The position numbers were made by a program, and so were the translations under genes. Below, piece by piece: positions 1,078 through 49,035 of a stretch of DNA of 64,000 nucleotides (the first letter of the stretch is position 1; each line of letters starts with the position of its first letter). This DNA is from Smithella sp. (lineage in GTDB: Bacteria > Desulfobacterota > Syntrophia > Syntrophales > Smithellaceae), in assembly GCA_049523355.1 (NCBI GenBank), contig JBEKMY010000004.1, forward strand, positions 20,797 through 84,796, written 5' to 3'. The notes under the pieces are model-generated. The model was not told the origin of the DNA. It did not search any database and was given only the letters and a program-made list of their open reading frames with translations.

Positions 1078-1201
1078 GGGACTGTTGAAAAACGCTCATC
1101 TGCTGCGTTGCGCTGCAAACCACACCGCTCAGCGTATTATAATATACGCCTCGCGATTTGCTTTTTGCGCGCCTTGCACCTGAACATTTTTGAACAGCCC
1201 C
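1078..1201. repeat. Imperfect-palindromic intergenic repeat, subfamily A, copy A1 (124 bp)
   Basis: The arms GGGACTGTTGAAAAACG (1078-1094) and CATTTTTGAACAGCCCC (1185-1201) are inverted complements (14/17). The core blocks CTGCGTTGCGCT and TTTGCGCGCCTTGC and a central GCGTAT-TATAA-TATACGC hairpin match the copies at 8618, 11377, 12986 and 46852. Confidence 0.85.
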
Positions 1202-1604
1202 TCTATTTAGTTTTTTCAGTCCTTTAATAAGCGTATCGAAAAAATCAGCCAGAGCGTAGCGATCGGCTGTATTGATTTTGTTATGTGCTATTCTTCTTTG
1301 TTTTTCTTTATATCGCTACAACAAGCAGATATAAAGTATAGAGCAGGCCAATGCTAGCAGATCCTGCAACTCCGTATCCAACTACTTCTGCACCACCACC
1401 AGAAAATGTTAAATGATGTTTATAGTCAATGTAGTATCCGTAATTATTATACCGATCAACATGGCTAACAAATAAGATATTGCCCCAAATAGGATTGTAC
1501 GTATTCTTAGTTTATGTGGAGTAATAATATCAATTATTTTTTTCATATTTATTTTCTTACATAACGATTAATATACCTAATACATATTACCAAAAAAATT
1601 AAAT

Positions 1605-2609
1605 TTATTCCCTGATTCGTTTTTTAAGTTCTTTAATCAAGTTGTTCAGAACGTCGCTGGCATCGCCAACGATAGCCACATCGGACATTTTCATCATCGT
1701 TGCCTGCGGATTTTTATTAATCGCTATAATAAAATTTGCTTCGCCCAATCCTGCTGTATGTTGAATAGCGCCGCTGATGCCAAAAGAAAAAAGGATTTTC
1801 GGTTTTATGTGCTTGCCCGCCTGTCCCACCAGTGCGCCATGGTCAGCCCATCCGGCGTAAACTACCGGTCTGGTGGCGCCGACATCACCACCTAAAAGCT
1901 TGGCCAACTCCTGCAGTTTTTTGAATTTTTCCCTATTGCGCATACCACGGCCACCGCAAACGATAACCGAAGCATTCTCAATAGTATGTTCTTTTTCCAC
2001 AGAACGTTCATACTCCACAAGGCGAACACGGGGTTTCGGCAGGTTTTGCATTAAGGGCAGACGTTCAACCAAAGCCTTTCTTTGATAATCATGCGGTATT
2101 TCCTTAAATGTTCCCGGTCGTATCGTAGCCATCTGGGGACGATGATGTTCCGTAACGATTTCCGCCAGCATATTGCCGCCAAACGAGGGGGCTATCTGCA
2201 ACAATAGTCCGTCTTGTGCAATATCGAGCCCCACACAATCAGCGGATAAACCTGTCTTTAAACGCTTGGCCAGCCGCGGCGCGAATTCACGGCCAAAGTC
2301 TGTAGCACCAATCAGGATAATTTCCGGATCCCTTTGTTTGGCCAGAATTTCAATGATAGCCAGATATCTTTCCGTGCTGTAACTCTTTAAAGCGGGATCA
2401 TCAATTGCCAGAATTCTATCCGCTCCGTGAGCGGTATATTCCATAATCCATTCGTCAATTTCATGACCAAAAATCAACGCGCAAACCTCCGCATTGATAG
2501 TTTTGGCAAGATCCATAGCTTTGGAAATCAACTGAAGGGTTACACGGTTTTGATAATAATTGCGGTAATCGCCAAATACCCAGATACTTTTTTGCTTACT
2601 CTTCATCAT
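1605..2609 (-). CDS. etfA: Electron transfer flavoprotein alpha subunit
   Basis: The ORF-track protein has typical EtfA features (WVFGDY..., C-terminal FAD-binding GISGAIQHxAG motif). The track start at 2627 is a TTG. The ATG at 2609 is preceded by GAAGGA, so I use it. Confidence 0.9.
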   Translation of the reverse strand: MMKSKQKSIWVFGDYRNYYQNRVTLQLISKAMDLAKTINAEVCALIFGHEIDEWIMEYTAHGADRILAIDDPALKSYSTERYLAIIEILAKQRDPEIILIGATDFGREFAPRLAKRLKTGLSADCVGLDIAQDGLLLQIAPSFGGNMLAEIVTEHHRPQMATIRPGTFKEIPHDYQRKALVERLPLMQNLPKPRVRLVEYERSVEKEHTIENASVIVCGGRGMRNREKFKKLQELAKLLGGDVGATRPVVYAGWADHGALVGQAGKHIKPKILFSFGISGAIQHTAGLGEANFIIAINKNPQATMMKMSDVAIVGDASDVLNNLIKELKKRIRE

Positions 2610-3444
2610 CAAGTTTGTTTCCTTCAATAGATTTGCCTATTACCGTGCCGATTTTTCTTTGATACCTGTCTAAGAATTCAGTAACGACCGCGGAAGATGT
2701 TCCATGTATGAGCACGTTTTCTTTCTGTGCTTTTCTCAAAAAGACTCTGCGCACTTTGGTGCGTGAGCCTTTACTTTTAGATGATAAAGCGTTTATGCCA
2801 AGAGCCGCCGCATCAAGCACAATCACCTCATTTCCGCAAAAAACATTTTCCAAACCAACAAGATTTGTGTAGCGCGGTTTGTAATTTTCCATGGAAACAG
2901 TCACCAGCGCCGGGAATTCCATTTCGAGAGTTTCACGAAAATTATCCACAAGCCGGCGAACACGCAATGTCCGGCCGTAAATTTCCAGCTTTTCAATATA
3001 GGCAGCCGCGGGTAAATCCAATTCTTCAGCTAATTGCGGTCCAACCTGCGCGGTTTCACTATCTGCAGTATAAGAACCGCAAAGGATAAGATCAAATTTA
3101 GGACATTTCTTTTTTATTGCCGCTGTTAAAACCAACGACGTGGCGTAAGTATCCGACCCGGCCAGGAGCTTATCGCAAATAAGGATTCCCCGGTCGGCAC
3201 CTAAAGCCATTGCTTCGAGCAGCACTTCCTCGGCAGCCGGCGGACCCATGGTTATGGCAGTAATATTCGCGGAAATTTTTTCTTTTATTTGCAGTGCGGC
3301 CTCCAGAGCGTGCTTGCAGGCCGGATTCATCATACCGGAGGCGAGGTCACGTCTGAGTGTGCCGGTTTTTTCATCCCACGGCAGTTCTGTAACCATAGGA
3401 ACTTGTTTTAAACATACTACGAGATTTAACATATTGTCTATCAT
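2596..3444 (-). CDS. etfB: Electron transfer flavoprotein beta subunit
   Basis: The N-terminus NLVVCLKQVP and overall EtfB-like sequence support the call. It overlaps the etfA start by 14 nt, the classic etfB-etfA arrangement. Confidence 0.9.
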   Translation of the reverse strand: MIDNMLNLVVCLKQVPMVTELPWDEKTGTLRRDLASGMMNPACKHALEAALQIKEKISANITAITMGPPAAEEVLLEAMALGADRGILICDKLLAGSDTYATSLVLTAAIKKKCPKFDLILCGSYTADSETAQVGPQLAEELDLPAAAYIEKLEIYGRTLRVRRLVDNFRETLEMEFPALVTVSMENYKPRYTNLVGLENVFCGNEVIVLDAAALGINALSSKSKGSRTKVRRVFLRKAQKENVLIHGTSSAVVTEFLDRYQRKIGTVIGKSIEGNKLDDEE

Positions 3445-3578
3445 ACGGACTCACGTCGCCCCCTCACAAGGCATGAGCCTTGCGAGCCTCCCTCTCTCGC
3501 TCGCTTATGCGAGTTGCATAACAGATTCCTTTAACGGCGAGAAACAACCAATAACTTCGCACAGAAACATTTGGGAAT
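3445..3578. repeat. Probable degenerate member of the palindromic repeat superfamily, filling the acd-etfB spacer
   Basis: It contains CACAAGGC...GCCTTGCGAG and CTCGC-TTAT-GCGAG hairpins followed by TTGCATAAC. The right end GCACAGAAACATTTGGG resembles GCAGCACATGAGCATTTTGGG of copy A5. A matching left arm is not evident, so the assignment is tentative. Confidence 0.45.
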
Positions 3579-4745
3579 CTATAATATCAGTTGAGACAGT
3601 ATCGAGCGCGCAATAACCATGCGCTGAATTTCACTTGTGCCTTCATAAATTTCCGTAACTTTAGCATCACGGAAGTATCTTTCAACATCATATTCCTTGC
3701 TGTATCCATAGCCGCCGTGAATTTGGACGGCCAGGGAGGTCGTCTTTGTCGCAACCTGACTGCAATAAAGTTTCGCCATCGCCGCCTCACAGCCAAAGGG
3801 GACTCCTTCATCCTTCAATGAGCATGCGTGGTACAAAAGTAAACGCGCCGCGGTTTGTTGGGTGGCCATATCGGCAATGTAATTTTGAATTGTTTGCAAC
3901 GACGCAATGGGTTTTTTAAATTGCTGCCTTTCTTTGGCGTATTTAACCGCCGCTTCCAATGCTCCCTGGGCAATACCCAAAGCTTGCGCGGCGACGCCGA
4001 TCCTGCCGTTATCCAGGGTGGTCATGCCTATTTTCATTCCGTCACCGATTCTTCCCAGCAGATTTTTTTCCGGTACACAGCAATCTTCCAAAAATAATGA
4101 AGAAACCGGGTTAGCGCGCATTCCGCAAAGATCTTCCAACTCACCGCGTAAAAATCCGGCATATTTGCCCTCAACAATAAAAACACTGCTCTGCGGACGT
4201 GTTGGATCAAAACCGGTAAGGGCGAAAATTAAGGCCAAATCACAAATTCCGCCGTTGGTGACGAATATTTTAGTGCCGTTTAAGATGTACTCCTTGTTTT
4301 TTTTTACAGCTGTTGTTTCCACGCTGGCGGAATCAGAACCCGCATTGGCTTCGGTCAGACTGAAAGCGCCGATAATTTCACCGCTGGCTAATTTAGGCAG
4401 GTAATGTTTTTTTTGCTCTGGTGTGGCAAAGCGTAGAAACGGATAGACCGCGACTCCATTGTGCACGGTAACGCACAAGCCTACTGCGGCGCAGATACGG
4501 GATAATTCTTCCACAACTATTGCAGAGCTGACAGAATCCATGGCCGCACCGCCGAATTCTCTGGGCACCTGCAGGCCGAAATAATTAAGCACCTTCATTT
4601 TCTCGATGACGGCAAAAGGAAAAGTGGCTTTACGGTCTATTTCGGCAGCAATAGGCGCAAGTTCTGTTTCTGCGAAATGCCGCACGGAATCACGGATCAA
4701 CTTATGTTTAGTGCTTGGATTTATTTGCAATGTCATTTTCCCCAT
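3579..4745 (-). CDS. Acyl-CoA dehydrogenase (short/medium-chain type)
   Basis: A 388-aa protein with full-length ACAD-family similarity (e.g. C-terminal YEGTSEIQR motif). It lies immediately upstream of etfBA on the same strand. Confidence 0.9.
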   Translation of the reverse strand: MGKMTLQINPSTKHKLIRDSVRHFAETELAPIAAEIDRKATFPFAVIEKMKVLNYFGLQVPREFGGAAMDSVSSAIVVEELSRICAAVGLCVTVHNGVAVYPFLRFATPEQKKHYLPKLASGEIIGAFSLTEANAGSDSASVETTAVKKNKEYILNGTKIFVTNGGICDLALIFALTGFDPTRPQSSVFIVEGKYAGFLRGELEDLCGMRANPVSSLFLEDCCVPEKNLLGRIGDGMKIGMTTLDNGRIGVAAQALGIAQGALEAAVKYAKERQQFKKPIASLQTIQNYIADMATQQTAARLLLYHACSLKDEGVPFGCEAAMAKLYCSQVATKTTSLAVQIHGGYGYSKEYDVERYFRDAKVTEIYEGTSEIQRMVIARSILSQLIL

Positions 4746-5566: not shown

Positions 5567-6124
5567 ATGCCTGATAATGTAATCATCCGCTGTCTTAACT
5601 GCGGAACAAAAAACAGAATACCGCATAAAAAACTACAGGGCAGGTCTATCTGTGGAAAGTGCGGCGCGTCGCTGGATGAATTAATTATTCGTTGCCTTAA
5701 ATGCGGCACGAAAAACAGAATGTCTGAAGATCGCTTAAATCAAAAACCTTTATGCGGCAAATGCCATGAACCATTGATCATGCCTCAACAAAAAATCATG
5801 CCTTTCGATGTAACGGATCAAACATTTGCCCGTGAAGTGCTGACTTCCGATACGTCCGTGCTAGTAGATTGCTGGGCGCCATGGTGCGCTCCCTGCCGGA
5901 CATTATCCCCTATTATTGATGAACTCGCTTCTGATTATGCCAACGGAGTAAAAGTAGTTAAGCTTAATGTTGATGAAAATCAGATCACCGCTTCCCAATA
6001 TGGAATTCGCAGTATTCCAACCATGCTTTTCTTTAAGGAAGGTAAGATAGTAGATAGAGTAACCGGGGCACTGCCGAAAGAAGAAATCGAAAGACATCTG
6101 TTATCCATCATCAAAACAAACTAA
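5567..6124 (+). CDS. Thioredoxin with an N-terminal tandem pair of CxxC-x16-CxxC zinc-finger modules (Trx2-like)
   Basis: The C-terminal thioredoxin fold has the active site WCAPC. The N-terminus has two near-identical modules, [31 protein letters not shown] and [31 protein letters not shown]. Confidence 0.85.
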
Positions 6125-6674: not shown

Positions 6675-6867
6675 AAACCCCCCAAGTAAAAAAATTCATT
6701 TAAACAATAAACTGCCAGGATAAATTTATGAAAAAGACTTTCCGATTTCTCTCCTTTTAGTTCTAAACAACTTTTTCTTCTGGAAAGTTTCTTGCCAGAG
6801 GTAAAAAGTTTTGTTAGACTTCCTGCCAAGTCAGGCATTAGTTATACTAAAAGGGAGACGCAAACCC

Positions 6868-8166
6868 ATGATCTACAATGAAGAATTTGAAACCATGCCC
6901 CGTGAAGTTATAAAAGCCCTGCAAGTCAAAAGACTACAGCAGGTTCTGGAACGGGTCTACCACACGGTGGGATTTTACAAAAAATCTTTTGATGCCGCTA
7001 AAATCAAGCCTGACGCTATAAAATCCATTGCCGACATGCAAAAACTTCCCTTTATCACCAGAAAGGATTTAAGCGATAATTATCCTTTCGGCTTATTTTC
7101 CGTACCCATGAGCAACATCGTCCGTTTGCACACGTCTTCCGGAACCAGCGGAAGGGCAACTGTTTTCGGATATACCAAACGCGATATTGAAACATGGTCG
7201 GATCTTATCGCTCGCTCGCTCGTCGCCGCGGGTATAACAAAAAACGATATTATTCATAACGCCTTTGGTTACGGATTGTTCACCGGTGGTTTGGGGCTGC
7301 ATTATGGCGCGGAAAAAATAGGCGCCAGTGTTATTCCCATGTCCGGAGAAAACACCAAAAGGCAAATTATGATTTTGCAGGATTTCGGTCCGACCGTAAT
7401 TTGTTCCACTCCGTCATACGCTTTGCACCTCGTTGAAGAAGGAAAGGCTCTTGGCGTGGACATGAAATCTTTAAAACTGCGCGTGGGCATTTTCGGAGCA
7501 GAACCATGGAATAAGGCGACGTGCGATGAAATTGAAAAAGCTTTTGGTATAACCGCCCTGGATCTGTATGGTTTATCGGAAGTTATCGGCCCGGGCATGG
7601 CTATGGAATGCATAGAAGGTCGCAATGGAATGCATGTTTTTGAAGACCATTTTATCGTCGAAACAATCAATCCCACAACAGGCGACGTTCTCCCCGAGGG
7701 AGAAGAGGGCGAACTGGTTTTTACAACTCTCACCAAAGAAGCGGGTCCGCTCATCCGTTACCGTACAGGCGACATATCGCGTCTGATTACCGAATCGTGC
7801 CGCTGCGGCCGTAGTCACGTCAAGATGGAAAGGGTTTTGAAAAGAAGCGACGACATGCTGATTATACGAGGTATCAATATTTTCCCCTCACAAATAGAAG
7901 CTATTTTAGTTGGTATCGAAGGATTGAAACCCAATTATCAAATCATCATTGATAAAGTGGGCGCGCTGGACTCGCTGGATTTACAGGTGGAAGTCAGCGA
8001 TAATATATTCAGCGATTCCGGCAGCGTCAAAGAACTGCAGAAAATTGAAAAACAGATTATCAAGGACATGAAGGATTATTTGGGTGTCTCCGCACGTGTA
8101 AAGCTTGTCGAGCCTAATACTCTACAAAAAGCAGGAGCAAAAATTATTGATAAACGCCGCTATTGA
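6868..8166 (+). CDS. paaK: Phenylacetate-CoA ligase family (adenylate-forming) enzyme
   Basis: PaaK-type sequence ([24 protein letters not shown]). The track start at 6811 is a TTG. The ATG at 6868 follows the SD AAGGGAG (6851-6857). Confidence 0.85.
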
Positions 8167-8187: not shown

Positions 8188-8619
8188 ATGAAAGTAGAAC
8201 AAATATCTGTTTTTTTAGAAAACAAACCCGGCTCGCTCGAGTATGCGACGCGAGTCATGAAGGAGAACAACATCAATATTCGGACTCTCTCGCTGGCTGA
8301 AACGGTCGATTTCGGTATTTTGCGTTTGATTGTCAATGATGTCGAAAAAGCAAACAAAGTGCTCAAAGACAACGGCTTTCGTGTAAGCAAAACCCCTGTT
8401 GTTGCCGTCGAAGTTCCCGACAAACCGGGCGGACTGCATAGCATTATGGAAGTTGTATCCAAAGAAGGCATCAACGTGGAATATCTTTACGCCTTTGTAG
8501 AAAAAAGCGGCCAGAATGCCGTCATCATCTTCCGCTTCGATAACCCCGAAAAAGCTATTGAAGTTTTACTAAAGCATAAGTTCACGGTTATTCCGGGCGC
8601 AAAGCTCTACGACTTCTGA
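8188..8619 (+). CDS. ACT domain-containing protein (two ACT repeats)
   Basis: A 143-aa protein. The N-terminus [10 protein letters not shown] and the second module [10 protein letters not shown] are ACT-like. An ACT protein directly after PaaK is a common pairing. Confidence 0.7.
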
Positions 8620-8743
8620 TGACACCGTAAAGCACCCGTAAGGTACGTTGCGCTTTAGCCCTTGTCATTGCGATGTACATTATAAGTACACTTCGATCCT
8701 GAGGCTTTGCGCGGCTTATCTCTTGGCATTTTACAGTGTCATC
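8618..8743. repeat. Imperfect-palindromic intergenic repeat, subfamily A, copy A2 (126 bp)
   Basis: The arms GATGACACCGTAAAGCACC and GGCATTTTACAGTGTCATC are inverted complements (15/19). The core has ACGTTGCGCTTTAG, a central GTACATTATAAGTAC hairpin and CTTTGCGCGGCTT. The element starts on the stop codon of the ACT gene. Confidence 0.9.
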
Positions 8744-8938
8744 ATTTAGTAGATAGATATCATCAATGTTTGAGATATTGTACTTCTTGCCATTATATGC
8801 AACGGCTTATCTCAAATATTTTCTTGAGTTTTAGCTTTATGCGCTTATAATATGCACATCAAACAAGCAGATAAGTAATTTCTTCCTTATAAAAATTTTT
8901 AAACATTCCACAATTTAATATCGGCAGGAGGTAATGAT

Positions 8939-10984: not shown

Positions 10985-11296
10985 TTACAGCGGTTTTTCA
11001 CATTCCCTGCACTTGCCGTCAGAGCCAATAACCCCGATACAGGCCTCGTCGCTGCATAATATTCTTTTATCCCAATCATCATCGGATTTCGTATCAGCTG
11101 CAGGGACTGCTTTTTGTTCTCGAGAAACTTCCGCCTGAACGCTGCCCGTTGCCTGTTGGCAGGGAAGCTTTCCTTCATAAACTCTGCCGCATTCTTTACA
11201 TTTACCGTCGGCACCTATAACTCCTATACAGGATTCATCGCTGCACAGTATTCTTTTATCCCAGTCTTCATTTTTGTCAAAAATGATTTCCGTCAT
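10985..11296 (-). CDS. Small protein built of two Cys4 zinc-ribbon-like modules, unknown function
   Basis: A 103-aa protein with an internal duplication: DWDKRILCSDESCIGVIGADGKCKECG and DWDKRILCSDEACIGVIGSDGKCRECE (C-x4-C-x9-C-x2-C each). The strong SD GGGAGGA lies 4 nt upstream of the ATG. Confidence 0.7.
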   Translation of the reverse strand: MTEIIFDKNEDWDKRILCSDESCIGVIGADGKCKECGRVYEGKLPCQQATGSVQAEVSREQKAVPAADTKSDDDWDKRILCSDEACIGVIGSDGKCRECEKPL

Positions 11297-11376: not shown

Positions 11377-11503
11377 GATGGCTTCGTAAAATGTCCAGAG
11401 GCAAGGCGCGCAAAACCCATAGGAGTGAGGCGTACTTTTTGCGTACGCTGCAACGACAAGAGCTGAAGCGTAACGCAGCATATGGGCATTTTACGGAATC
11501 ATC
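11377..11503. repeat. Imperfect-palindromic intergenic repeat, subfamily A, copy A3 (127 bp, reverse orientation relative to A2)
   Basis: The arms are GATGGCTTCGTAAAATGTCC and GGGCATTTTACGGAATCATC (16/20 complementary). The core has CCAGAGGCAAGGCGCGCAAAACCC, the GCGTAC-TTTTTGC-GTACGC hairpin and CTGAAGCGTAACGCAGCATATG. Confidence 0.9.
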
Positions 11504-11506: not shown

Positions 11507-12949
11507 TTAGCCTTTGATACAGGCTATAGATTTAAGTTTAGCCACCCTCCTCGCAACACCCGAATCATGCATAACCTGCACAACGTCCTGGAGGTTTTTA
11601 TAAGCTTCCGGCATTTCCTCACCCAGCGTGCCCTTGCTGCCGGCTATTACCAAAACTCCCATCTCGGCAAGCTCACGGCTAATAAATCTTCCCTTGCTGG
11701 ATTTGATTGCTTTTGAACGGCTCATCACCCGCCCTGCCCCGTGACAGGCACTGCCGAATGTCGCTTCCATTGCCTTTTCCTGACCGGCTAAAACAAATGA
11801 ACCTGTGCCCATATCACCGGGAATCAATACCGGCTGGCCCACGCTTCTATAGCGATCGGGTACAGCCTCATGACCGGCGGGAAACGCACGCGTCGCTCCT
11901 TTGCGGTGAACGCAAAGTTTTTTTGTAATGCCCGCAATAGTAAACGATTCTATTTTGGCAATGTTATGACAGACATCATATACCAGACGCATTCCCAGTT
12001 CGCGGGGAGCCACGCGCAGCGTTTTTTCCAGAACTTCGCTTGTCAGATGCATTAGGATTTGCCGGTTGGCCCATGCGTAATTGGCTCCGCAGGCCATGGC
12101 AGCCAGATAATTTTCCCCCCGTGCTGAATTGAGATATGCACAAGCCAGCTGTCTATCCGGCAGCTCAATGCCTGTTTCATGCGCGTGCTTGACCATTAAG
12201 GCCAGATAATCATCGCAAATCTGATAACCCAATCCGCGCGAACCGGTATGAATCATGATGACGATCTGATTTTTACGTAAACCAAACGCCTGCGCGGTTT
12301 TCTCATCAAATATCTCCTGCACCACTTCAATTTCCAGAAAGTGATTGCCGGAACCCAGCGTGCCTAACTGTTGCTTGCCCCGTTCGATAGCCCGCGCTGA
12401 TACCTGCTCCGGGTCCGCGCCGCTCATGCATCCGCCGTCTTCAGTTGTTTCCAAATCCAGAGCCGTCCCAAAACCGGCCTTGACCGCCCACCTTGCGCCT
12501 TCTTCGAGCACTTTTTTCTGATCTTTACCGGATAGTTTAATATAGCCTGTGGAACCGACACCCGACGGAATACGATGATACAATGCAGTAGTTAAATCTT
12601 TGATCTTGTCTTTGATATCCGAAATGAACAGTTCTGTGGTCATCAGGCGGCAGCCACAGTTGATGTCATAGCCAACACCGCCAGGCGAAATAATGCCGCT
12701 CTCAAGATCAAAGGCCGCTACGCCGCCGATAGGAAAGCCATATCCCCAGTGAACATCGGGCATGGCCAGAGAATAATTCACAATACCGGGCAAATGTGCG
12801 ACGTTAGCCACTTGTTTCACGCTTTCATCTTTTTTCAGCAGATCATAAATCTTATCATTGGCATAGATAATTCCCGGTACGCGCATAGAGCCTGTCTGCG
12901 GCAGAAACCAGCGGTTATCATCTATTTTTTCCAATCTAATTTCAGGCAT
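11507..12949 (-). CDS. rtcB: RNA 3'-phosphate/2',3'-cyclic phosphate ligase RtcB
   Basis: RtcB signature motifs are present (GYDINCG, GSGNHF, HTGSRGLG, HGAGR). The track start at 12961 is a TTG, so I prefer the ATG at 12949 (MPEIRLEK...). Neither has a clear SD. Confidence 0.9.
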   Translation of the reverse strand: MPEIRLEKIDDNRWFLPQTGSMRVPGIIYANDKIYDLLKKDESVKQVANVAHLPGIVNYSLAMPDVHWGYGFPIGGVAAFDLESGIISPGGVGYDINCGCRLMTTELFISDIKDKIKDLTTALYHRIPSGVGSTGYIKLSGKDQKKVLEEGARWAVKAGFGTALDLETTEDGGCMSGADPEQVSARAIERGKQQLGTLGSGNHFLEIEVVQEIFDEKTAQAFGLRKNQIVIMIHTGSRGLGYQICDDYLALMVKHAHETGIELPDRQLACAYLNSARGENYLAAMACGANYAWANRQILMHLTSEVLEKTLRVAPRELGMRLVYDVCHNIAKIESFTIAGITKKLCVHRKGATRAFPAGHEAVPDRYRSVGQPVLIPGDMGTGSFVLAGQEKAMEATFGSACHGAGRVMSRSKAIKSSKGRFISRELAEMGVLVIAGSKGTLGEEMPEAYKNLQDVVQVMHDSGVARRVAKLKSIACIKG

Positions 12950-12985
12950 TTTAATGCTCAAAAAAGTTCAAATATTAAAGCTCTT

Positions 12986-13090
12986 CCACGGCATCGTAAA
13001 AAGTTCCAGAGGCAAGCACGCAAATCCCGAGGAATGAGGCGTACTATTCGTACGCCGCAACGTAGCTTATGGACTTTGTACGAAGCCGTC
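12986..13090. repeat. Imperfect-palindromic intergenic repeat, subfamily A, copy A4 (about 105 bp, same orientation as A3, internal deletion)
   Basis: CGTAAAAAGTTCCAGAGGCAAGCACGCAAATCCC...GAGGCGTACTATTCGTACGCCGCAACG aligns with A3. About 20 bp is missing from the right half. The arms GGCATCGTAAAAAGTTCC and GGACTTTGTACGAAGCC are complementary. Confidence 0.85.
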
Positions 13091-13526
13091 AGACATCGAA
13101 TATCACCCTTGCCCCCCATCCTGACTTTCGCTTTGTAACACTCAAGCCACAATAGGTTACTGCCTTAATCTCGGTTTTAATCAAATGCTTCCTGTTATTG
13201 TATGGCTCACCCATCAATTGCGCTACCAGCTTTTTATTGCCGCATTTTATAATTTCGCACTTGTCTACTACCCAGTGCCCGCCATTAAATAAGTAAAGCA
13301 TCTCCCGTAAAAAATTAATCAGTAAATCCGCTGCATCCGCGCCGTCAATAGTTATTATTTTATACCGCCCTTTTCTCTCCCGGGTAGTCCTGCCATTATT
13401 TTTGACGTTTTCGATCAGGACACCAAACAAAGCACAGGCGGCGTTGGCAAACAGTTCCTTCTTAGTCCGTCCTGATATTTCAATACCTATATCGGCCGTA
13501 TGGTCAAAAAAGTTGTATTTGGACAT
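13089..13526 (-). CDS. Archease (RtcB activator)
   Basis: A 145-aa protein. The N-terminus FDHTADIGIEISG is the archease signature. It is on the same strand as, and upstream of, rtcB. Confidence 0.85.
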   Translation of the reverse strand: MSKYNFFDHTADIGIEISGRTKKELFANAACALFGVLIENVKNNGRTTRERKGRYKIITIDGADAADLLINFLREMLYLFNGGHWVVDKCEIIKCGNKKLVAQLMGEPYNNRKHLIKTEIKAVTYCGLSVTKRKSGWGARVIFDV

Positions 13527-13628: not shown

Positions 13629-16145
13629 TTAATCTTCTTCCGTTGTACTATTTTCTTCCTGCGTCAGATCAGTTTCATCGTCACCATTGCTGTTGATATC
13701 ATCATCCTTGCCTTCGGCTTCCGATGTCGTGCGCGCAACGCCAACAAGTTTTTCTTCAGGATCCAGTTCAATAAGTTTCACTCCCTGCGTTACCCGATGA
13801 TTTACCGGTATTTCCTGCACCTTCAACCGGATAACTTTGCCGGCATTGCTGATCAACATAACGTTATCTTCACCGATAACCTGCAGAACGCCGGAAACAT
13901 TGCCTACTTTTTCCACCGTTTTTAAATTGATCGTTCCTTTGCCGCCACGGGTTTGGACACGGTATTCATCAATCGGCGTGCATTTGCCGAATCCGTTTTC
14001 CGAAACGGTAAGCATGAAAGTGTTCTGCGCGGGAATATCCATACCGATAACATCATCACCTTCATCCAGATTAATGCCGCGCACACCGCGGGCTGTTCTG
14101 CCCATATCCCGAACATCGTCTTCTTTGAAACGAATGGCCATACCCTGTCTTGTCGCTATAAAGATATCCTGATTCCCCATCGTCAATTGAACATCCACCA
14201 ACTCATCCCCTTCGTCAATGGAAATGGCAATGATGCCGCCGGATCGCGGATTGGCATAAGCGGTTAGTTCAGTTTTCTTGATAGTGCCCTTTTTAGTGAT
14301 CATCACAATATACTTATCGTCAACAAATTCCTTGACCGGCAATGTTGCACGAACACTTTCACCCGGCGCAAGATTGACCAGATTGACCATGGCTTTGCCT
14401 TTGGCCGCGCGTCCCGCCTGAGGTATCTGATAAACCTTCAACCAGTGCACTTTTCCTGCACTGGTAAAAACAAGCAGGTAATGATGTGTGGAGGCGATAA
14501 AGATTTTTTCCACAAAATCTTCCTCTTTCGTTCCCATACCCATTTTGCCGCGTCCGCCGCGGTGCTGACTTTTGTAAAGGCTGACCGCGTTGCGTTTGAT
14601 ATAGCCGCTATGGGATATCGTTACAACCACATCTTCTTCCACGATCATATCTTCAATATTGATATCTTCGGAGCTCGCGACGATTTCCGTACGCCGTTCA
14701 TCGCCGTACCGTTCCTTAATTTCATTGAGCTCGTCAATAATAACCTGCAAAACTTTTTGCGGATCGGCTAAAATAGCGTTCAAATGGGCGATCAAGGCGT
14801 TCACTTCCGCGTATTCCTCGTCGATCTTGGCTCGCTCCAAACCGGTCAGACGCTGGAGTCTCATCTCCAGAATGGCTTTGGCCTGAATTTCCGACAAACT
14901 GAATTTCGCGCATAACTGCATCGAAGCTTCCGCTGGTGTCTTCGATGCTTTAATGACTTTAATAACTGCGTCAATGTTGTTTAAGGCAATAATGTAACCT
15001 TCTAAAATATGCGCTCGTTCCTGCGCTCTTGCCAATTCAAACCTGGTGCGGCGTATAACAACATCCCTGCGGAAACTGATGAATTTTTCGAGTACTTGTT
15101 TGAGATTGAAAACCTGTGGCATGTTTTCGGAGATCGCCAGCATGATGACGCCCAAGGAAACTTCCATTTGCGTGAATTTATAGAGCTGATTGAGGATGAT
15201 TGCCGAATTTTCATCCCGCTTGAGTTCGATCACCACGCGGATGCCTTCTCGGTCGGATTCGTCCCGCAAATCGGAAATGCCTGATATCTTTTTATCGCGC
15301 ACCAGTTCCGCTATTTTTTCGATCAGCGTAGCCTTGTTGACCTGATAAGGCAGTTCTGTAAGAACAATGGTTTCCCTATCATTACGGGCGTTCTTTTCAA
15401 TAAGAGAGCGAGCGCGGATGCGGATGATCCCGCGTCCGGTTTTATAGGCGGAAAGAATTCCTTCCCGGCCATTAATAAATCCGGCAGTTGGAAAATCAGG
15501 ACCGGGAATATGACGTATGAGCTGTTCGATGGTAATGTCCGGATTCTTAATGCAGGCGATGGTGCCGTTTATAATTTCTTTCAGATTATGCGGCGGAATA
15601 TTGGTCGCCATACCAACAGCAATACCTGATGTTCCATTGAGCAGTAACAGCGGAATGCGTGTTGCCAGAAGCGACGGCTCCTGCAGGGATTCATCATAGT
15701 TCGGCACATAATCGACCGTGTCTTTTTCCAGATCGGCCAGCACTTCATCAGAAATGCGCGCCAGACGACTTTCCGTATAACGCATGGCCGCGGGCGGATC
15801 GCCGTCAATCGAACCGAAGTTGCCCTGTCCGTCCACCAGCATGTAGCGCAGAGAAAACTCCTGTGCCATACGCACCATTGTGTCATAAATGGCCGCATCG
15901 CCGTGCGGATGATATTTACCCATGATCTCGCCGACGATACGGGCGGATTTTTTGTAGGGTTTATTATGGCGGTTGCCCATTTCATACATGGCATATAAAA
16001 TCCGGCGGTGCACCGGTTTGAGGCCGTCGCGTACATCGGGAATTGCCCGGCCGATGATGACACTCATGGCGTAATCCATGTAGGATTTTTTCATTTCATC
16101 TTCTATATTCACCAGTGTTTGCTTGTGGTGGATATCACGTTCCAT
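13629..16145 (-). CDS. gyrA: DNA gyrase subunit A
   Basis: Full-length GyrA ([23 protein letters not shown], catalytic-Tyr region AAMRYTE). The track start at 16196 is a TTG. The ATG at 16145 follows GAGAGG. The C-terminus is an acidic tail. Confidence 0.95.
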
Positions 16146-16217
16146 TTTGTTTAATCCTCTCTCAATAATAAACTGACTGATTTTCAGCCGGCACAATCAT
16201 TAATCTAACAGTGTTTA

Positions 16218-18647
<2,430 letters not shown>

Positions 18648-18650
18648 CTA

Positions 18651-19760
18651 CTATATTTTTAACGGCATAATTATGCATAAATAACCGTCATCTTCAGCCT
18701 GTTTGATCAGTGATGGTTTTAATCCCACCCCAACTTCCAACAGAATATTTTCTTTATTAATCACAGATATGGCATCAATTAAATAATTTACATTAAATCC
18801 ACTATCAATATTTTCTCCATCATAATCTATATCTATCTCTTCCGTTGCTTCACCTACGTCCAAATTTGTGGAATTGAGTGTTAACTTACCTTTAGAAAAA
18901 GAAAGAATAACTCCACCATATCTTTCTGACGACACAACACTCATTCTTTTTAAGGCATGTAGAAAATATTCTTTTTCTAAAATAACTCGAATTCCTTTTT
19001 CAGTGGAAATAACTTTTTTATAATCAGGATAATCCGCATCAACCAAACTGACTTTTAAAAGAGTGTTTTCTGTTTTCACGACAAACATATTTTTATGTAA
19101 ACCTATTTTAACCTCTTCATTTTCATCAATAATTTTTTTGATTTCCATCAATCCCTTGCGGGGAATAATAATTCCTTTTCCAGTCTTTAAAAAAGGACCG
19201 GATATTAAACCTTTAGCCAACGCTAAACGATGACCGTCAGTAGCCACCATTCTTAATAAATGATCTACCCCATCCACTCCTTCTTCCAATAAAACACCAT
19301 TTAGATTTTTTCTGCTTTCATCAGTTGCCATAGCGAACGCTGTTTTATTAATTAAATCTTTTATGACCATTCCCTTTATTTTATAAAGAGGAATATCCTT
19401 ATCATCTGTAATACTTGGAAAATCTTCGGCCGGTAGTCCCGGTATTTTATAAAACGCCCGCTGAGATGATATTTTTACAATATTATTTTTCTGAGTGAAA
19501 ATAATAACTTCACCTTGAATTTCTCTTATCATTTCATATATCTTTTTTGCGGAAACAGTGATTTCACCATTTTCCGATATTTCCGCATCATAATCAGAAA
19601 TTAAAATTATTTCTCTATCAGTAGCAATTATTTTCAGCTTATTATTTTCAGCTTTTACAAGAATATTATTTAAAATAGGTATTGTTGTTTTTTTTTCGAC
19701 AATGCCTAATGTTTTTTGAATACCATCAAGAAAGGTTTCTCTGTTAATTTTAAATTCCAT
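18651..19760 (-). CDS. dnaN: DNA polymerase III beta sliding clamp
   Basis: A 369-aa DnaN-like protein positioned after dnaA. The SD AGGAGG lies upstream of the ATG. Confidence 0.9.
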   Translation of the reverse strand: MEFKINRETFLDGIQKTLGIVEKKTTIPILNNILVKAENNKLKIIATDREIILISDYDAEISENGEITVSAKKIYEMIREIQGEVIIFTQKNNIVKISSQRAFYKIPGLPAEDFPSITDDKDIPLYKIKGMVIKDLINKTAFAMATDESRKNLNGVLLEEGVDGVDHLLRMVATDGHRLALAKGLISGPFLKTGKGIIIPRKGLMEIKKIIDENEEVKIGLHKNMFVVKTENTLLKVSLVDADYPDYKKVISTEKGIRVILEKEYFLHALKRMSVVSSERYGGVILSFSKGKLTLNSTNLDVGEATEEIDIDYDGENIDSGFNVNYLIDAISVINKENILLEVGVGLKPSLIKQAEDDGYLCIIMPLKI

Positions 19761-19919
19761 ATTTCCTCCTTGTTTTTTATCTTAATATTATAATTTAGTT
19801 TCTTATATATAATTAGTATTAATAGTAATGCCTGTGGATATGTTGATTAATGCTTTTTTTTAAATAATTATAATTACTTTAAACACATTTAACTTGTTTA
19901 TAAATGAATATAAAAAAGT
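19761..19919. promoter_or_regulatory. Candidate oriC unwinding module in the dnaA-dnaN spacer
   Basis: Read on the minus strand from 19841 the sequence is: DnaA box ATATCCACA (8/9), a second abutting 7/9 box (TAATCAACA, 19849-19841), spacer GGCA, then TTA CTA TTA ATA CTA (19828-19814), then a very AT-rich stretch down to 19761. Confidence 0.55.
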
Positions 19920-21272
19920 TTATGATTTGTTCATTAAAATATCCTCCAATTCCTGAATCAAACCTTTTAACTTAGGGTCTGTTTTTATGCTATTTAATAT
20001 TTTATTATTAGCATAAATTACCGTGGAATGATCACGACCACCAATTTTTTGACCGATATCAGGAAAAGAATGATTTGTTAATTTTCTTGCTAAATACATG
20101 ACAATTTGCCTTGCGAAGACAATATTTTTATTTTTATTATGAGCTTTAATGTCAGATATTTTTATATTTAATTTTCCAGATATAACTTTAATGATTTCTT
20201 CAATGCTTACGTCACCCTGTTTATTATGCTTAACTAAGCTGCTTAATACTTCTTTTACTAAATCTAAATCAATTTCTCTGCCTGTTAAAGATGAATAAGC
20301 GCCTATTCTAACTAAAAAACCTTCCAGTTCACGAATATTTGATTCCACATGGGATGCGATATAATGAATAACATTATGCGGTAAATCAATTTTATTTTCC
20401 TGAATTTTTCTTTCGATAATAGCAATTTTAGTTTCTATTTCCGGTGGTTGAATATCGGCAATTAGTCCCCATTCAAAACGGGAACGAAGCCTACTTTCCA
20501 GATTAGGAATATCTTTTGGAAACTTATCACTGGTGACCACTATTTGTTTTCCGGAATCATGTAATGTGTTGAAAGTATGGAAAAATTCTTCCTGCGTTCG
20601 TTCTTTGCCTGCTAGAAAATGAATATCATCAATTAATAAACAACTGATGTTACGATATTTTTCTCTAAATTTTGGCATGCGGTCATAACGAATGGAATTA
20701 ATCATTTCATTCATAAATTCTTCTGCCGAAACATACATAATATTTAGCGTTGGGTGGATAGAAGACGAGAGAAGACCGATAGCATTAAGTAAGTGAGTTT
20801 TTCCTAAACCTGATCCTCCATAAATAAATAAAGGATTGTAATTTTTCGCCGGTTGTTTGGCTACGGCAATTGAAGCGGCGTGGGCAAATTGATTACACGA
20901 GCCAACCACAAACCTGTCGAAGTTGTAATTATCGTTGAGAAAAGAAAAGTTTTTGCTTTTACTGGTAATAGCCGTTGACGTATGTTTAGAATGCGTCGTC
21001 TGCTTGAACGACGGGTCGGAGATATTTTCCTGATTTTTTAATAGAACAAAATCAATATCAACATCTATACCTGCGGCAGCTTTTAAAGATTGTTTAATGG
21101 TAGATGTATAATTATCTAAAAGCCAATCTTTAAAAAATTTATTGGGCACAGCCAATTGCACATGCTGGTCTTCCATGGCAATTATTTTGATAGGTTTTAT
21201 CCATGTATCAAAATTTTGCTTACTTATTTTTTCTTGAATAAATTTAGTTGTTTTTCCCCAAAAATCTTCCAT
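19920..21272 (-). CDS. dnaA: Chromosomal replication initiator DnaA
   Basis: A 450-aa protein with the Walker A GGSGLGKTHL, an AAA+ domain and a C-terminal DNA-binding domain (DHSTVIYA). Confidence 0.95.
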   Translation of the reverse strand: MEDFWGKTTKFIQEKISKQNFDTWIKPIKIIAMEDQHVQLAVPNKFFKDWLLDNYTSTIKQSLKAAAGIDVDIDFVLLKNQENISDPSFKQTTHSKHTSTAITSKSKNFSFLNDNYNFDRFVVGSCNQFAHAASIAVAKQPAKNYNPLFIYGGSGLGKTHLLNAIGLLSSSIHPTLNIMYVSAEEFMNEMINSIRYDRMPKFREKYRNISCLLIDDIHFLAGKERTQEEFFHTFNTLHDSGKQIVVTSDKFPKDIPNLESRLRSRFEWGLIADIQPPEIETKIAIIERKIQENKIDLPHNVIHYIASHVESNIRELEGFLVRIGAYSSLTGREIDLDLVKEVLSSLVKHNKQGDVSIEEIIKVISGKLNIKISDIKAHNKNKNIVFARQIVMYLARKLTNHSFPDIGQKIGGRDHSTVIYANNKILNSIKTDPKLKGLIQELEDILMNKS

Positions 21273-21294
21273 TTAACAACCTTTATAAACACAC

Positions 21295-21324
21295 TTATCA
21301 ACAATTGTGGATAAGTGTGGAATA
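21295..21324. promoter_or_regulatory. DnaA-box cluster in the 58-bp parB-dnaA spacer
   Basis: TTATCAACA (21295-21303, 8/9), TGTGGATAA (21306-21314, the perfect reverse complement of TTATCCACA) and TGTGGAATA (21316-21324, 8/9). Confidence 0.7.
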
Positions 21325-21330
21325 CATATA

Positions 21331-28460: not shown

Positions 28461-28498
28461 ATTTCTAAATCAAAGATAACATTTTGATTTAGAAATGG
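28461..28498. repeat. Mini derivative of repeat subfamily B (terminal arms only)
   Basis: ATTTCTAAATCAAA-gataaca-TTTGATTTAGAAATGG. The arms are the same as the ends of the 120-bp copies at 29719 and 32246, but the approximately 85-bp core is absent. It ends 3 nt before the SD AAGGAGG of the next gene. Confidence 0.8.
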
Positions 28499-28513
28499 AA
28501 TAAGGAGGTATAA

Positions 28514-29716: not shown

Positions 29717-29718
29717 TG

Positions 29719-29838
29719 CCATTTCTAACTCAAAGCGCTATTTTCGTTCGCTTCGTTGTCGGCTTCCTCAGACGTATGTATAATACGCCTTGTCGCCTCC
29801 AACTAGCCGCCTCAATATCGTCTTTGATTTAGAAGTTG
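29719..29838. repeat. Imperfect-palindromic intergenic repeat, subfamily B, copy B1 (120 bp)
   Basis: The arms are CCATTTCTAACTCAAAGCG and CGTCTTTGATTTAGAAGTTG. The core is TCGTTCGCTTCGTTGTCGGCTTCCTCAGACGTATGTATAATACGCCTTGTCGCCTCC. It is about 80% identical by eye to the reverse complement of 32246-32366. Confidence 0.9.
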
Positions 29839-29864
29839 CATAAACTCGATCTCCTTCGTATAAC

Positions 29865-29903
29865 TTCCTGCTGGTTCAATCTTGCAGATTGAACCAGCAG
29901 GAA
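29865..29903. other. Perfect 18-bp inverted repeat with a 3-nt loop
   Basis: TTCCTGCTGGTTCAATCT-tgc-AGATTGAACCAGCAGGAA, directly after repeat B1. There is no clean T-tract, so it is not a canonical terminator. Confidence 0.7.
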
Positions 29904-30213
29904 TCATCAGTTTTCAAATTTGCCGCGTTCTACTTCGGATATCAAGTTTATTAGAGTGTTGATAATAAGTTATTAAGAGTATTCCTATGATGGATATTAT
30001 TTGAATTTTAATTGACATTGACTATCAATTTTGGATTCCTTTATTAATTAGCGCAACTATCAGTTATTTGATACTATCTAATTCCAATGACACTATACTA
30101 AAAGTTTTTAGGTATATAATTGTATTTATTGGATTTATCGTCGGATCATGTTGGGAAATGCTATCTCGACGTAAAAAATAGCTCTTAAATCAATGAATAA
30201 AGGAATATTTTTC

Positions 30214-32234: not shown

Positions 32235-32245
32235 TGAAATGAATA

Positions 32246-32366
32246 CCATTCCGAAATCAAAGATGATATTAAGGCGGCTAGACTCCAGGCGACGATGCCT
32301 ATTTATGCATACGTTGAGGGAGCCGACAATGAAGCCAACAAAGATAACGCTTTGATTTAGGAATGG
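32246..32366. repeat. Imperfect-palindromic intergenic repeat, subfamily B, copy B2 (121 bp, inverted relative to B1)
   Basis: The arms are CCATTCCGAAATCAAAGATG and GCTTTGATTTAGGAATGG. Its reverse complement aligns end to end with 29719-29838. The right end abuts the cysS SD (AGAGG). Confidence 0.9.
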
Positions 32367-32376
32367 AAGAGGAAAT

Positions 32377-45771: not shown

Positions 45772-45812
45772 ATTAAGAATGCTTCTTTCCACCCACCGGG
45801 GGCATTCTTAAT
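45772..45812 (+). terminator. Hairpin downstream of the 44212 gene (possible terminator)
   Basis: An 11-bp perfect stem ATTAAGAATGC/GCATTCTTAAT with a 19-nt loop, followed by TTTC. The large loop and short T-run make it atypical. Confidence 0.35.
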
Positions 45813-45842
45813 TTCATGCCAGATATCCGCATCTGCTCATAT

Positions 45843-45895
45843 GATTGAGTAGTGATGCGGTGAACAAAGATAGCGCTTTGATTTAAAATTGGAGT
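45843..45895. repeat. Half copy (right end) of repeat subfamily B
   Basis: AACAAAGATAGCGCTTTGATTTAAAATTGGAG matches the right end of B2 (AACAAAGATAACGCTTTGATTTAGGAATGGAAG). No left half is present. Confidence 0.7.
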
Positions 45896-45901
45896 CGTTT
45901 T

Positions 45902-46840: not shown

Positions 46841-46851
46841 ATTTTTATACA

Positions 46852-46988
46852 GTTTCTCAAAATGTTTCAGGGGCAAGGCGTGCGAAGTATAAGGAGTTGG
46901 GTCAATCACCGTTGATCGCAATCAGTCTGTCTGGGCCAGCGCCGGGGCAAACTGAAACGTAAAGCAGCACATGAGCATTTTGGGAAAC
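46852..46988. repeat. Imperfect-palindromic intergenic repeat, subfamily A, copy A5 (about 137 bp, same orientation as A3)
   Basis: The arms are GTTTCTCAAAATG and CATTTTGGGAAAC. The left half AAAATGTTTCAGGGGCAAGGCGTGCGAAGTATAAGGAGT and the right half CTGAAACGTAAAGCAGCACATGAGCATTTTGGG align with A3. Confidence 0.85.
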
Positions 46989-46990
46989 TT

Positions 46991-47557: not shown

Positions 47558-47625
47558 AAAAATATCTCCTTACTTGGTTAATGTAACAAAATTGAGTGTT
47601 TTGCTCTTCGGTTTCTCTATTCTAT

Positions 47626-48717
47626 TTATGTGAACTTGTCAAAAAAATGTTGATGTTTTTTTAAATCATTTTTTATTGCGCCAGACATCACATTTAAAGG
47701 TATCTTGCCCGAGCTTCCGGGTACATCCAGAACATATTGCGGCAGGCAAAGTCCTGAACATTGCTGCCATATTGTTTCCATCAGGGCAATGCTCGCTTGC
47801 GCATCAGTGCGAAAGTGTGCACAGCCCTTAGCCGGATCGCAGTGGAAAAGATAATACGGACGGACAGATATCTTTTGCAGACCGTAGAGTAAGGTTCTCA
47901 TTACCTCCGGAGAATTATTAACGTTTTTCAGTAAAACCGATTGGTTGGAGACGGGAATGCCCGCTTCCTGCAGCATATTACAGGCGCGCCTGGATTCGGG
48001 CGTGATTTCTGCGGGGTGATTAAATTGAGTGTTAAACCATAAAGGCCGGTAGCGTTTGAGTATTCTACAAAGTTCTGGGGTAATACGCATAGGCATAACA
48101 ACAGGAATGCGGCTGCCAACACGCAAAACTTCAATATGCGGAATGGCTCGCAATGAAGACAAGAGATTTTCTAAAATATGATCATCGAAAATCAGTGGAT
48201 CACCGCCGGAAATAATCACTTCCCTGATTTGCGGCGATTGGGCAAGATAGTGAATCATTTTCTGAAATAGTGTTTTTAAACTTATATGATTAGGCTTTGA
48301 CCAGAGACGCTTGCGGTTACAGTGTCGGCAGTAAGTAGCGCAGGTTTCAGTAACAATGAGCAGACAGCGATCCGGGTAGCGATGCACCAGCTTGGGTACC
48401 GGCATGTGGGAATCTTCTTCCAGGGGATCTTGTGTCGCCGTTTCCGGACAGGAGATTTCCTGCAAATCGGGAACACATTGAGAGAGGATCGGATCGTTAA
48501 TATTATTATTTTGCATGAGCGATAAATAATAAGGAGTTATCGCCAGAGGATAAACAGATATTACTTCTTTTAACTTATCCTTATATAAATCCGTTTTTCC
48601 AAGAATATGTTCCAGTGTTTTTATTCGGGTCACCCGGTTTTTAAATTGCCAGCGCCAGTCCTGCCAATCTTTTGCCGAAGTATTGTTAAAATAGGAAAGA
48701 AATTTATTTTTATTCAT
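47626..48717 (-). CDS. epmB: EF-P beta-lysylation protein EpmB (lysine 2,3-aminomutase family, radical SAM)
   Basis: The CATYCRHCNRK radical-SAM cluster motif, KamA-family similarity, and adjacency to efp and epmA. Confidence 0.85.
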   Translation of the reverse strand: MNKNKFLSYFNNTSAKDWQDWRWQFKNRVTRIKTLEHILGKTDLYKDKLKEVISVYPLAITPYYLSLMQNNNINDPILSQCVPDLQEISCPETATQDPLEEDSHMPVPKLVHRYPDRCLLIVTETCATYCRHCNRKRLWSKPNHISLKTLFQKMIHYLAQSPQIREVIISGGDPLIFDDHILENLLSSLRAIPHIEVLRVGSRIPVVMPMRITPELCRILKRYRPLWFNTQFNHPAEITPESRRACNMLQEAGIPVSNQSVLLKNVNNSPEVMRTLLYGLQKISVRPYYLFHCDPAKGCAHFRTDAQASIALMETIWQQCSGLCLPQYVLDVPGSSGKIPLNVMSGAIKNDLKKHQHFFDKFT

Positions 48718-48893
48718 ATATTTAATTATTTACAAACAAAATCAAGATGTGTTTCCTACCACAAATTTCTCTGATTGCAAAGGGAATCAATAATCTTTAA
48801 AGAGTTTAAATAATGTAATGTCTATGATATATAAACAAACCATATCGAATGTAAGTTGCTATCTTGCAGGTGATAATTGCCGGTAAGGTGAAA

Positions 48894-49035
48894 ACTTGAT
48901 TTGTTACGCGCTTACGATCGTTGGCTGACTTTGTCGGTTGCGTCGTCGGTTCCTCGACGTATCAGTAGTGTGCCTTCGGAGCCTCCTGGTTACCGAGGCT
49001 GAGCCTTTGCGACATGGTATAAAAAAATAAACAAG
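48894..49035. repeat. Diverged member of repeat subfamily B (copy B3)
   Basis: The core TTGTCGGTTGCGTCGTCGGTTCCTCGACGTAT...GCCTTCGGAGCCTCC parallels B1 (TTGTCGGCTTCCTCAGACGTAT...GCCTTGTCGCCTCC). The termini are different (CTTGATTTGTTA / TAAACAAG). The boundaries are approximate. Confidence 0.6.

Follow-up and report, generated by a model that had tools for sequence, protein, structure and literature searches.

What are the long imperfect palindromes that recur in the gene spacers around the chromosomal origin of Smithella sp., and how did they come to lie there? We analysed a 64 000-nucleotide stretch of contig JBEKMY010000004.1 (assembly GCA_049523355.1, positions 20,797 to 84,796; hereafter the window), whose neighbourhood is that of the origin region, with parA, parB, dnaA, dnaN, gyrB, gyrA, archease and rtcB. 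The initial annotation of this DNA, made from the sequence alone, had described one superfamily of repeats resembling miniature inverted-repeat transposable elements, or MITEs for short, that is, DNA transposons which code for nothing and are mobilized in trans by DDE-type transposases whose genes lie elsewhere in the genome. Our results make it very probable that the repeats are MITEs and that they fall into two families, A and B. The likeness to MITEs is now backed by terminal inverted repeats, by target-site duplications and by an orthologous site that is filled in the window and empty in relatives.

The window contains 12 copies or fragments: five of family A, three near-full copies of family B and four family B fragments. 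The copies were extracted and aligned, and nucleotide profile hidden Markov models (HMMs) were built from them and later from about 100 copies per family found elsewhere. A generic repeat finder at 30 nt recovered family B fragments only; the profiles were required for the rest, and it is nhmmer scans with them that define the window copies. Fold z-scores (z) compare the RNA fold of a copy with 200 shuffles. Family A was searched for in a species-representative genome collection with two core blocks (CGTTRCGCT...TTTGCGCGSCTT), and family B in metagenomes with two B blocks. Loci with L numbers are fetched loci, about 1.7 Mb in total.

Family A: anatomy and insertion

The family A unit is about 155–165 bp long, and the 124-nt imperfect hairpin is only part of it. 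The left terminal repeat, GAYGGCTTCGTAAAAAGTC, is followed by the core, by an internal right repeat that closes the hairpin, by a spacer of usually about 8–20 nt and by a terminal right repeat, so that the right repeat occurs twice, its second copy being the 19-nt tail, GACTTTTTACGAGNNCRTC; the terminal inverted repeats measure about 19 bp. In 37 of the 89 copies an exact repeat of the hexamer flanking the 5′ end stands directly behind the tail; in flank-swapped controls this was so 3.8 times on average and 9 times at most. The repetition occurs at sharp distances of 27–29 or 38–39 nt. The consensus of the duplication is A-W-N-N-W-T, with the outer A and T each present in 35 of 38 cases, and its context is palindromic (ATY/AWNNWT/RAT). 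Terminal inverted repeats combined with a 6-bp duplication suggest that family A is a cut-and-paste, non-autonomous transposon, presumably of the DDE type. Its duplicated right end is unusual for a bacterial MITE and may correspond to two transposase-binding sites at one end of the parent element. Two subtypes have the core in common and differ at the ends: type I has GAYGGCTTCGTAAAAAGTC (copies A2–A4) and type II has GGGGCTGTTGAAAAACGC (copy A1).

The mobility of family A is directly shown by copy A4, a complete unit at 12944–13096 on the minus strand, between archease and rtcB (HMM match 12988–13090, nhmmer E 2.5e-20), which carries the internal deletion already described in the initial annotation. 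In the direction of the element, the duplication ATGTCT (13096–13091) is followed by the hairpin (13090–12988), by the spacer and tail GAACTTTTTTGAGCATTAAA as far as 12950, and by a downstream duplication ATGCCT (12949–12944) that includes the rtcB start codon, ATG at 12949. The ancestral junction between the two genes was predicted to be an 8-nt stop/start overlap, ATG-YCT-GA, and this prediction was then checked in orthologous loci. The empty junction, ATGTCTGA, is present as ...ATATTCG ATGTCTGA TATTAAA... in two loci of a Smithella sp. (L259 and L260) and in a metagenome-assembled genome (MAG) of Smithellaceae (L263), all three reading ...TTCGATGTCTGATATT... at the empty site; there the ATG of rtcB overlaps the TGA of archease and no element is present. 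In the window the same junction reads ...TTCG ATGTCT (GACGG...hairpin...tail) ATGCCT GAAATT..., with the hexamer duplicated. The downstream hexamer preserves the start of rtcB, and the upstream hexamer together with the GA of the element restores the archease stop codon. As to rtcB itself, its true start is the ATG at 12949, which yields a protein of 480 aa, the length of all close homologues; the TTG at 12961 chosen by the ORF finder falls in the MITE tail.

Other insertions are older. In the Smithella sp. locus L259, A2 has an orthologue at 6762–6885 and A3 one at 4442–4564 (78% identical), and since the same sites are thus occupied in a Smithella sp. whose RtcB is 88% identical, these two insertions must predate the split of both species. 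Three further relatives have other, partly deleted arrangements that keep an A-type tail 3′ of rtcB. In L261 (4443–4558) and L262 (4443–4578) the spacer after rtcB contains a different small palindrome (GTAGGGAACGGTCGCGACCTTTCCCTAC and a related one) followed by an A-type tail, GACTTTTTTACGAAGCCAGCAT, an arrangement that suggests element turnover or replacement at one site. Elsewhere, at L074 4135–4330 and L058 6745–6950, the terminal repeats are those of family A and a duplication is present (AATTTTG in L074), but the interiors are different; in L074 the halves of the A core are inverted relative to the ends, and there is also an unrelated G+C-rich hairpin.

Family B: anatomy and target

The family B unit is about 125 bp long and ends in the complementary terminal repeats TWCCAATTCTAAATCAAAG and CTTTGATTTAGAAWTGGWA. 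Among 112 copies the bases immediately outside the ends are TAA on both sides in 27 cases and TTA on both sides in 24, mixed pairs occurring at most once, and altogether the flanking trinucleotides are identical in 54 copies against 24 expected. Because TAA and TTA are each other's reverse complement, this direct concordance establishes a duplication of 3 bp, TWA, and rules out that the inverted repeats simply extend further. For family B also, the transposase would be of the DDE type. The copies are conserved at 80–95% evenly over their full length, which suggests a recent burst, and deletion derivatives are present in the form of a mini element and half copies. One copy, at L190 6958–7082, is a further intra-operon insertion: it separates cydB from cydA in an operon for cytochrome bd oxidase.

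Distribution

Scans of genomes and metagenomes showed copies of both families outside the window. Family A matched at least 120 loci of the genome collection, 114 of which were confirmed by the HMM (137 matches, 117 of them full length at 80–100 bits). The six loci without an HMM match are the only ones outside Desulfobacterota and Nitrospirota and are chance pattern matches. The hosts are MAGs of Desulfobacterota (Syntrophales/Smithella, Desulfobacterales, Desulfococcaceae, Desulfobulbaceae, Desulfurivibrionaceae, Desulfosudaceae and Syntrophobacterales) and at least seven MAGs of Nitrospirota, some on contigs of 0.3–1 Mb. Near-identical copies are present, for example, in MAG BP8.bin90. True family A copies also occur on IMG/VR viral contigs (L132 2822–2943, L134 896–1017, and L133 928–1049 and 7494–7616), two of them adjoining the gene for the terminase large subunit (gpA), and such contigs are a possible vehicle between Desulfobacterota and Nitrospirota.

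Family B was found at no fewer than 120 metagenome loci (157 nhmmer matches, 107 of them full length); in the genome loci it occurs, among the matches listed, only in MAGs of Smithella and Syntrophales. Many of its contigs share JGI prefixes (e.g. Ga0182021 and Ga0209777) with peat contigs that carry window genes, a link that is one of naming prefixes. The host of the window is an uncultured bacterium of peat: archease proteins identical to that of the window are encoded on peat and wetland metagenome contigs, and the closest RtcB homologues (at most 88% identity) are labelled Smithella or Smithellaceae, order Syntrophales. A blastn search of plasmids gave no match to the repeats.

Insertion at gene ends

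Units of 125–165 bp lying between long open reading frames (ORFs), as these do, are of the size (below about 500 bp) and non-coding nature of MITEs, and many of them sit exactly at gene ends. Relative to the stop codon of an ORF in the same orientation, many family A copies have their 5′ end at −2 to +8 nt. Many family B copies also abut stop codons, and ATG or CAT is contained in many of the family A duplications. In agreement with the initial annotation, copies are placed between co-directional genes, namely archease/rtcB/a 103-aa gene, argC-like/cysS, efp/epmA-like and mlaC/mlaA (Pfam).

The target motifs themselves explain much of this placement, for they overlap stop and start codons: TWA includes TAA, and AWNNWT followed by RA gives T/GA. 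As family A starts with GA, its insertion at a gene end or in a stop/start overlap would spare both reading frames. Such frame-sparing insertions survive, and copies thereby fill intra-operon spacers, while selection would remove those that damage genes. Judging from their position, the elements are probably transcribed together with the flanking genes.

Observations that weigh against the MITE interpretation

Several observations do not sit easily with two families of MITEs and have to be weighed against this interpretation. The first is the lack of a partner: the fetched loci yielded neither an autonomous element nor a transposase whose terminal repeats match. Putative candidates for the partner of family A would be the ISNCY/ISDol1 group of Desulfococcus oleovorans, with repeats of 6–7 bp, or elements with IS1595/IS1016-like ends (GGGgctg), and for that of family B the TNA/TWA groups of the IS5 family. 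Neither solo terminal repeats with their neighbouring ORFs, nor inverted repeat pairs 450–4000 bp apart, nor blastn searches of plasmids yielded a cognate transposase, the neighbours being ordinary metabolic genes or, on viral contigs, terminase. The window itself had been said to contain no transposase, and we saw nothing that contradicts this. The second concerns the duplications, which are decayed or unresolvable in most window copies and visible only in A4, in B1 and possibly in A2; that of type II family A (A1-like) was not definable from 15 copies. Third, in co-directional gene pairs the elements are biased in orientation relative to transcription, family A being mostly sense (45 sense, 20 antisense; p 0.003) and family B mostly antisense (11 sense, 27 antisense; p 0.014).

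The fourth observation is the state of the hairpin. An RNAalifold analysis of the MAFFT alignment gave a consensus of only 7 pairs on account of gaps, so pairing was assessed by projecting the fold of a single representative onto the alignment. In 83 family A copies, 88.8% of the cells in the resulting 41-pair hairpin form pairs. The 124-nt hairpin covaries over its whole length, with both sides changed in 27 of the 41 pairs, and double-change cells number 277 against 86 ± 7 in shuffled data and at most 62 with slid partners. This excess indicates that the palindrome of family A has been actively maintained, or founded anew repeatedly, from end to end. Several asymmetric internal loops are conserved too; neither feature is expected of a neutrally decaying MITE.

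Possible function of the hairpin

These features raise the alternative that the hairpin core is a selected functional module in addition to its mobility, maintained by the host or by the element and spread by two transposition systems. It might act as an mRNA-processing or mRNA-stabilizing hairpin, as a weak terminator working in both directions (A-tract, hairpin and U-tract) or as a protein-binding DNA or RNA structure. We consider this unlikely, with a minor but real chance of being correct. The compensatory covariation, strong in all five family A helices, speaks for it, as do the conservation of the internal loops across subfamilies, the in-register central hairpin that A and B have in common despite unlike ends, and the orientation bias of both families. 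However, covariation could also arise from subfamilies with different master copies, and the biases of A and B are opposite even though the two cores share one orientation when aligned. Moreover, the non-Watson–Crick cells comprise 68 G·U against 129 A·C, an absence of G·U excess which means that no transcribed strand is favoured, and the uniform conservation of family B is what a recent burst would give.

A comparison of orthologous copies with fourfold-degenerate sites gave a mixed answer with respect to selection. The orthologues of A3 are 78% identical against 59% at such sites of rtcB, whereas those of A2 are no better conserved than such sites (about 75% against 78% in the ACT-domain gene). 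Simple consensus scans for promoters and terminators flagged nothing inside the elements. A role at the transcript level is possible; the candidates would be a long hairpin with a basal A-tract and U-tract or a processing or stabilizing site like those reported for other MITEs, and the hairpins may influence mRNA processing, stability or termination.

To a bolder version of this idea we give only a small chance: that the core of about 70 nt is a selected RNA or single-stranded DNA hairpin, or a protein-binding site, which two or more unrelated transposition systems (those with 6-bp and TWA duplications) have taken up and spread across Desulfobacterota and into Nitrospirota, partly on phage genomes. 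If true, the selected core would act at operon junctions, for instance in mRNA processing, stability or translational coupling. The transposon interpretation, with two MITE families of unlike ends, raises in turn the question of why a full-length hairpin and a two-family core are kept.

One superfamily or two families

The initial annotation had united all copies in one superfamily. The part of this claim that stands is a weak similarity in register: the central module CTCA.CGTAT-loop-ATACGCCTCG of type II A and part of the right arm, loosely similar, align with the B consensus. A1 scores 36 against the B consensus, the maximum in 3000 shuffles being 32, and the type II A model matches 13 of 116 B copies at 9–13 bits (shuffled sequences, at most 0.6 bits) as well as the core of the window copy B2 (E 0.034). 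The part that does not stand is the common identity of the elements, as terminal repeats and duplication lengths are different. Unlike ends, duplications of 6 versus 3 bp and targets of AWNNWT versus TWA point to different transposases. From these alignments the likeness is read as a shared or exchanged core module and not as a single family, and a single superfamily remains only weakly supported.

In its strict form, with an ancestral MITE whose ends diverged along with a single transposase lineage, the superfamily appears quite improbable. Besides the similarity of the central hairpin and right arm, this scenario could draw on right-end motifs that are loosely alike (CTTTTTACGA, CATTTTTGAAC and CATCTTTGATT), on the presence of both families in the same Syntrophales genomes and on locus L063, where, at 4374–4563, a family B right arm (ATATCATTTTTGATTTAGAACTGGAAT) comes immediately after a type II A copy, as a chimera or nested insertion. 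Yet duplications as different as these are normally the mark of different transposase families, the profiles mostly miss the other family (the B model reaches at most 3.3 bits on A copies), and the similarity is limited to about 30–60 nt. Extremely improbable is the proposal that the repeats are REP/BIME-type palindromes spread by RAYT (a tyrosine transposase of the IS200/IS605 type) or integron attC sites: imperfect palindromes after stop codons and between co-directional genes would fit, but both the duplications and the empty site contradict it, the units measure 125–165 bp and not 20–40 bp, they have true terminal inverted repeats and flanking duplications, neither of which IS200/IS605-type elements are known to make, the flanking genes belong to housekeeping operons (gyrA, archease, rtcB, cysS, efp) and not to cassettes, and neither an integrase nor, in the window and the examined loci, a RAYT came into view.

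Copies in the window

The list of copies in the initial annotation was largely recovered, with exceptions given below. Its statement that each copy folds as one long hairpin applies to A1–A4, B1 and B2 (z −3.1 to −5.5, with none of 200 shuffles as good), less clearly to A5 (z −2.3), and fails for B3 (z −0.9), where there is no hairpin signal; the same is true of a copy at 57.5 kb (z about −1). The genes that flank the copies are ordinary housekeeping and metabolic genes (Pfam).

Within family A, A1 (1078–1201, plus strand; HMM 1079–1199; E 2e-35; z −4.5) represents subtype II, with the terminal repeat GGGACTGTTGAAAAACG and a possible degenerate tail, AGTTTTTTCAGTCC, about 10 nt downstream. It is antisense to both long ORFs beside it, and MAG contig L040 has a copy with 91.6% identity to it. 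A2 (8612–8787, plus strand; HMM 8618–8741; E 5e-18) consists of a hairpin at 8618–8743 followed by a degenerate spacer and tail up to 8781, and is enclosed by a candidate 6-bp duplication, ACTTCT, at 8612–8617 and 8782–8787. The TGA stop codon (8617–8619) of the ACT-domain gene upstream is made of the T of this duplication and the GA of the element. A3 (11377–11503, minus strand; HMM 11379–11503; E 1e-29) begins 3 nt past the rtcB stop codon in the same orientation as the operon. It is 66–71% identical to A1, A2 and A4, whereas random 125-mers of the window have a mean identity of 46% and a maximum of 52%. A5 (46853–46989, minus strand; E 6e-7 over model positions 4–120), between efp and the epmA-like gene, is diverged; its interior is mostly replaced and the best match is at the ends. 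Its identity to A3, put at about 80% by eye, is 59% when measured.

For family B the corresponding estimate, about 80% between B1 and the reverse complement of B2, proved accurate (79%). B1 (29714–29843, plus strand; E 8e-33; z −5.5) comprises an element at 29717–29840 and the duplication TAA at 29714–29716 and 29841–29843, the upstream TAA being the stop codon of the preceding DegT-family aminotransferase gene. B2 (32242–32368, minus strand; E 5e-30) lies between the argC-like gene and cysS, antisense to both, with decayed flanks (GAA/GAG). A third copy, at 57500–57638 on the minus strand (E 1.7e-9), lies between mlaC and mlaA and is antisense to both; it is diverged and has an internal insertion. 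The mini form at 28461–28500, to which no strand is assigned, was recognized by eye from its two terminal repeats, the profile match being marginal (E 0.016). Its left and right repeats are joined by about 7 nt, the core being deleted; next come TAA and the ribosome-binding site that belongs to the DegT-family gene. The half copy at 45857–45895 (minus strand; E 3e-7, model positions 4–42) corresponds to one terminal repeat and the sequence beside it. B3 was retained as a core only, at 48925–48994 on the plus strand (E 1.2e-6, model positions 26–95), without recognizable terminal repeats. A last fragment, at 59577–59615 (minus strand; E 2e-5, model positions 25–64), was absent from the initial annotation, as was the copy at 57500–57638, while the degenerate copy that it had placed at 3445–3578 was dropped, having no match at E<5 with any model and a fold z of only −1.9.

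Some features of the surroundings deserve mention. Downstream of B1, at about 29864–29954, there is a near-perfect 17-bp stem, CCTGCTGGTTCAATCT...GATTGAACCAGCAGG, which is probably a terminator-like hairpin; it gives a sub-threshold match to the Rfam 23S-methyl motif (30.7 bits against a gathering threshold of 50; E 0.049). Internal direct repeats were seen in two small genes, the 103-aa gene 3′ of rtcB (11001–11082 versus 11190–11271) and a thioredoxin/Zn-ribbon gene (5573–5619 versus 5675–5721); in both the repeats are 78–79% identical and look like duplicated Zn-ribbon-type modules. The genes gyrA, gyrB, dnaN, dnaA, parB and parA are located at 13629–22956, all on the minus strand, and the G+C content of the window falls to 0.33 at 18–20 kb.

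Significance and comparison with known elements

MITEs are an ordinary kind of element, but the particular families A and B appear to be undescribed. They are abundant in Smithellaceae, in other Desulfobacterota and in some Nitrospirota MAGs, and account for many structured intergenic spacers that one might otherwise take for riboswitches or small RNAs. The repeats break short-read assemblies, and they are useful as markers of recent versus old insertions between close uncultured lineages. They also offer clean natural cases of transposon insertion in the stop/start overlaps of translationally coupled genes with both genes left intact.

The initial annotation could match the sequence to no named family, and this remains so. 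Rfam gave no match at the gathering threshold over the whole window and nothing on the elements at E≤5, and literature searches with terminal-repeat and core strings returned only unrelated primers. The likeness to ERIC elements that it noted did not hold at the level of sequence: A3 has no blastn match in any of 5,426 complete genomes of E. coli, a species in which ERIC and REP occur, and membership of ERIC/IRU was rejected. The enterobacterial ERIC/IRU (127 bp) are nevertheless similar in size, in their imperfect palindrome, in their occurrence in transcribed operon spacers and as MITE-like copies without a partner; they differ in host phylum, and the clear duplications and the duplicated right end are features of the repeats described here.

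The Correia/NEMIS elements of Neisseria are likewise MITEs of about 100–160 bp with long terminal repeats, hairpins and internally deleted size variants. They are often co-transcribed, and their hairpins affect mRNA processing. Their target duplication is TA, and their repeats, 26 bp long, are not known to be related in sequence to those of A or B. Family B resembles in its target the MITEs derived from the IS5 family, which duplicate TNA/TWA and are the bacterial counterpart of PIF/Harbinger-type elements. Duplication of TWA (TAA/TTA) is what characterizes this group; the searches yielded no transposase of the IS5 family that has the B terminal repeats, and the likeness is one of duplication.

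By host, the nearest described element is Chunjie, which was reportedly described by Chen et al. in 2008. As summarized in two later publications, this MITE of Geobacter uraniireducens Rf4 is 178–235 bp long and A+T-rich, with 21-bp terminal repeats and 9-bp direct repeats (PMC3184786, PMC10969869). It resembles families A and B in belonging to the Desulfobacterota in the broad sense, in its terminal repeats of about 20 bp, in its stable hairpin and in its non-disruptive insertion in an operon (PMC3184786, PMC10969869). In contrast, the elements of Smithella have duplications of 6 bp (A) and 3 bp (B), measure 125–165 bp and have G+C-rich cores. The 9-bp repeats, the length and the A+T-richness reported for Chunjie indicate a different family, set apart from A and B by description and not by sequence.

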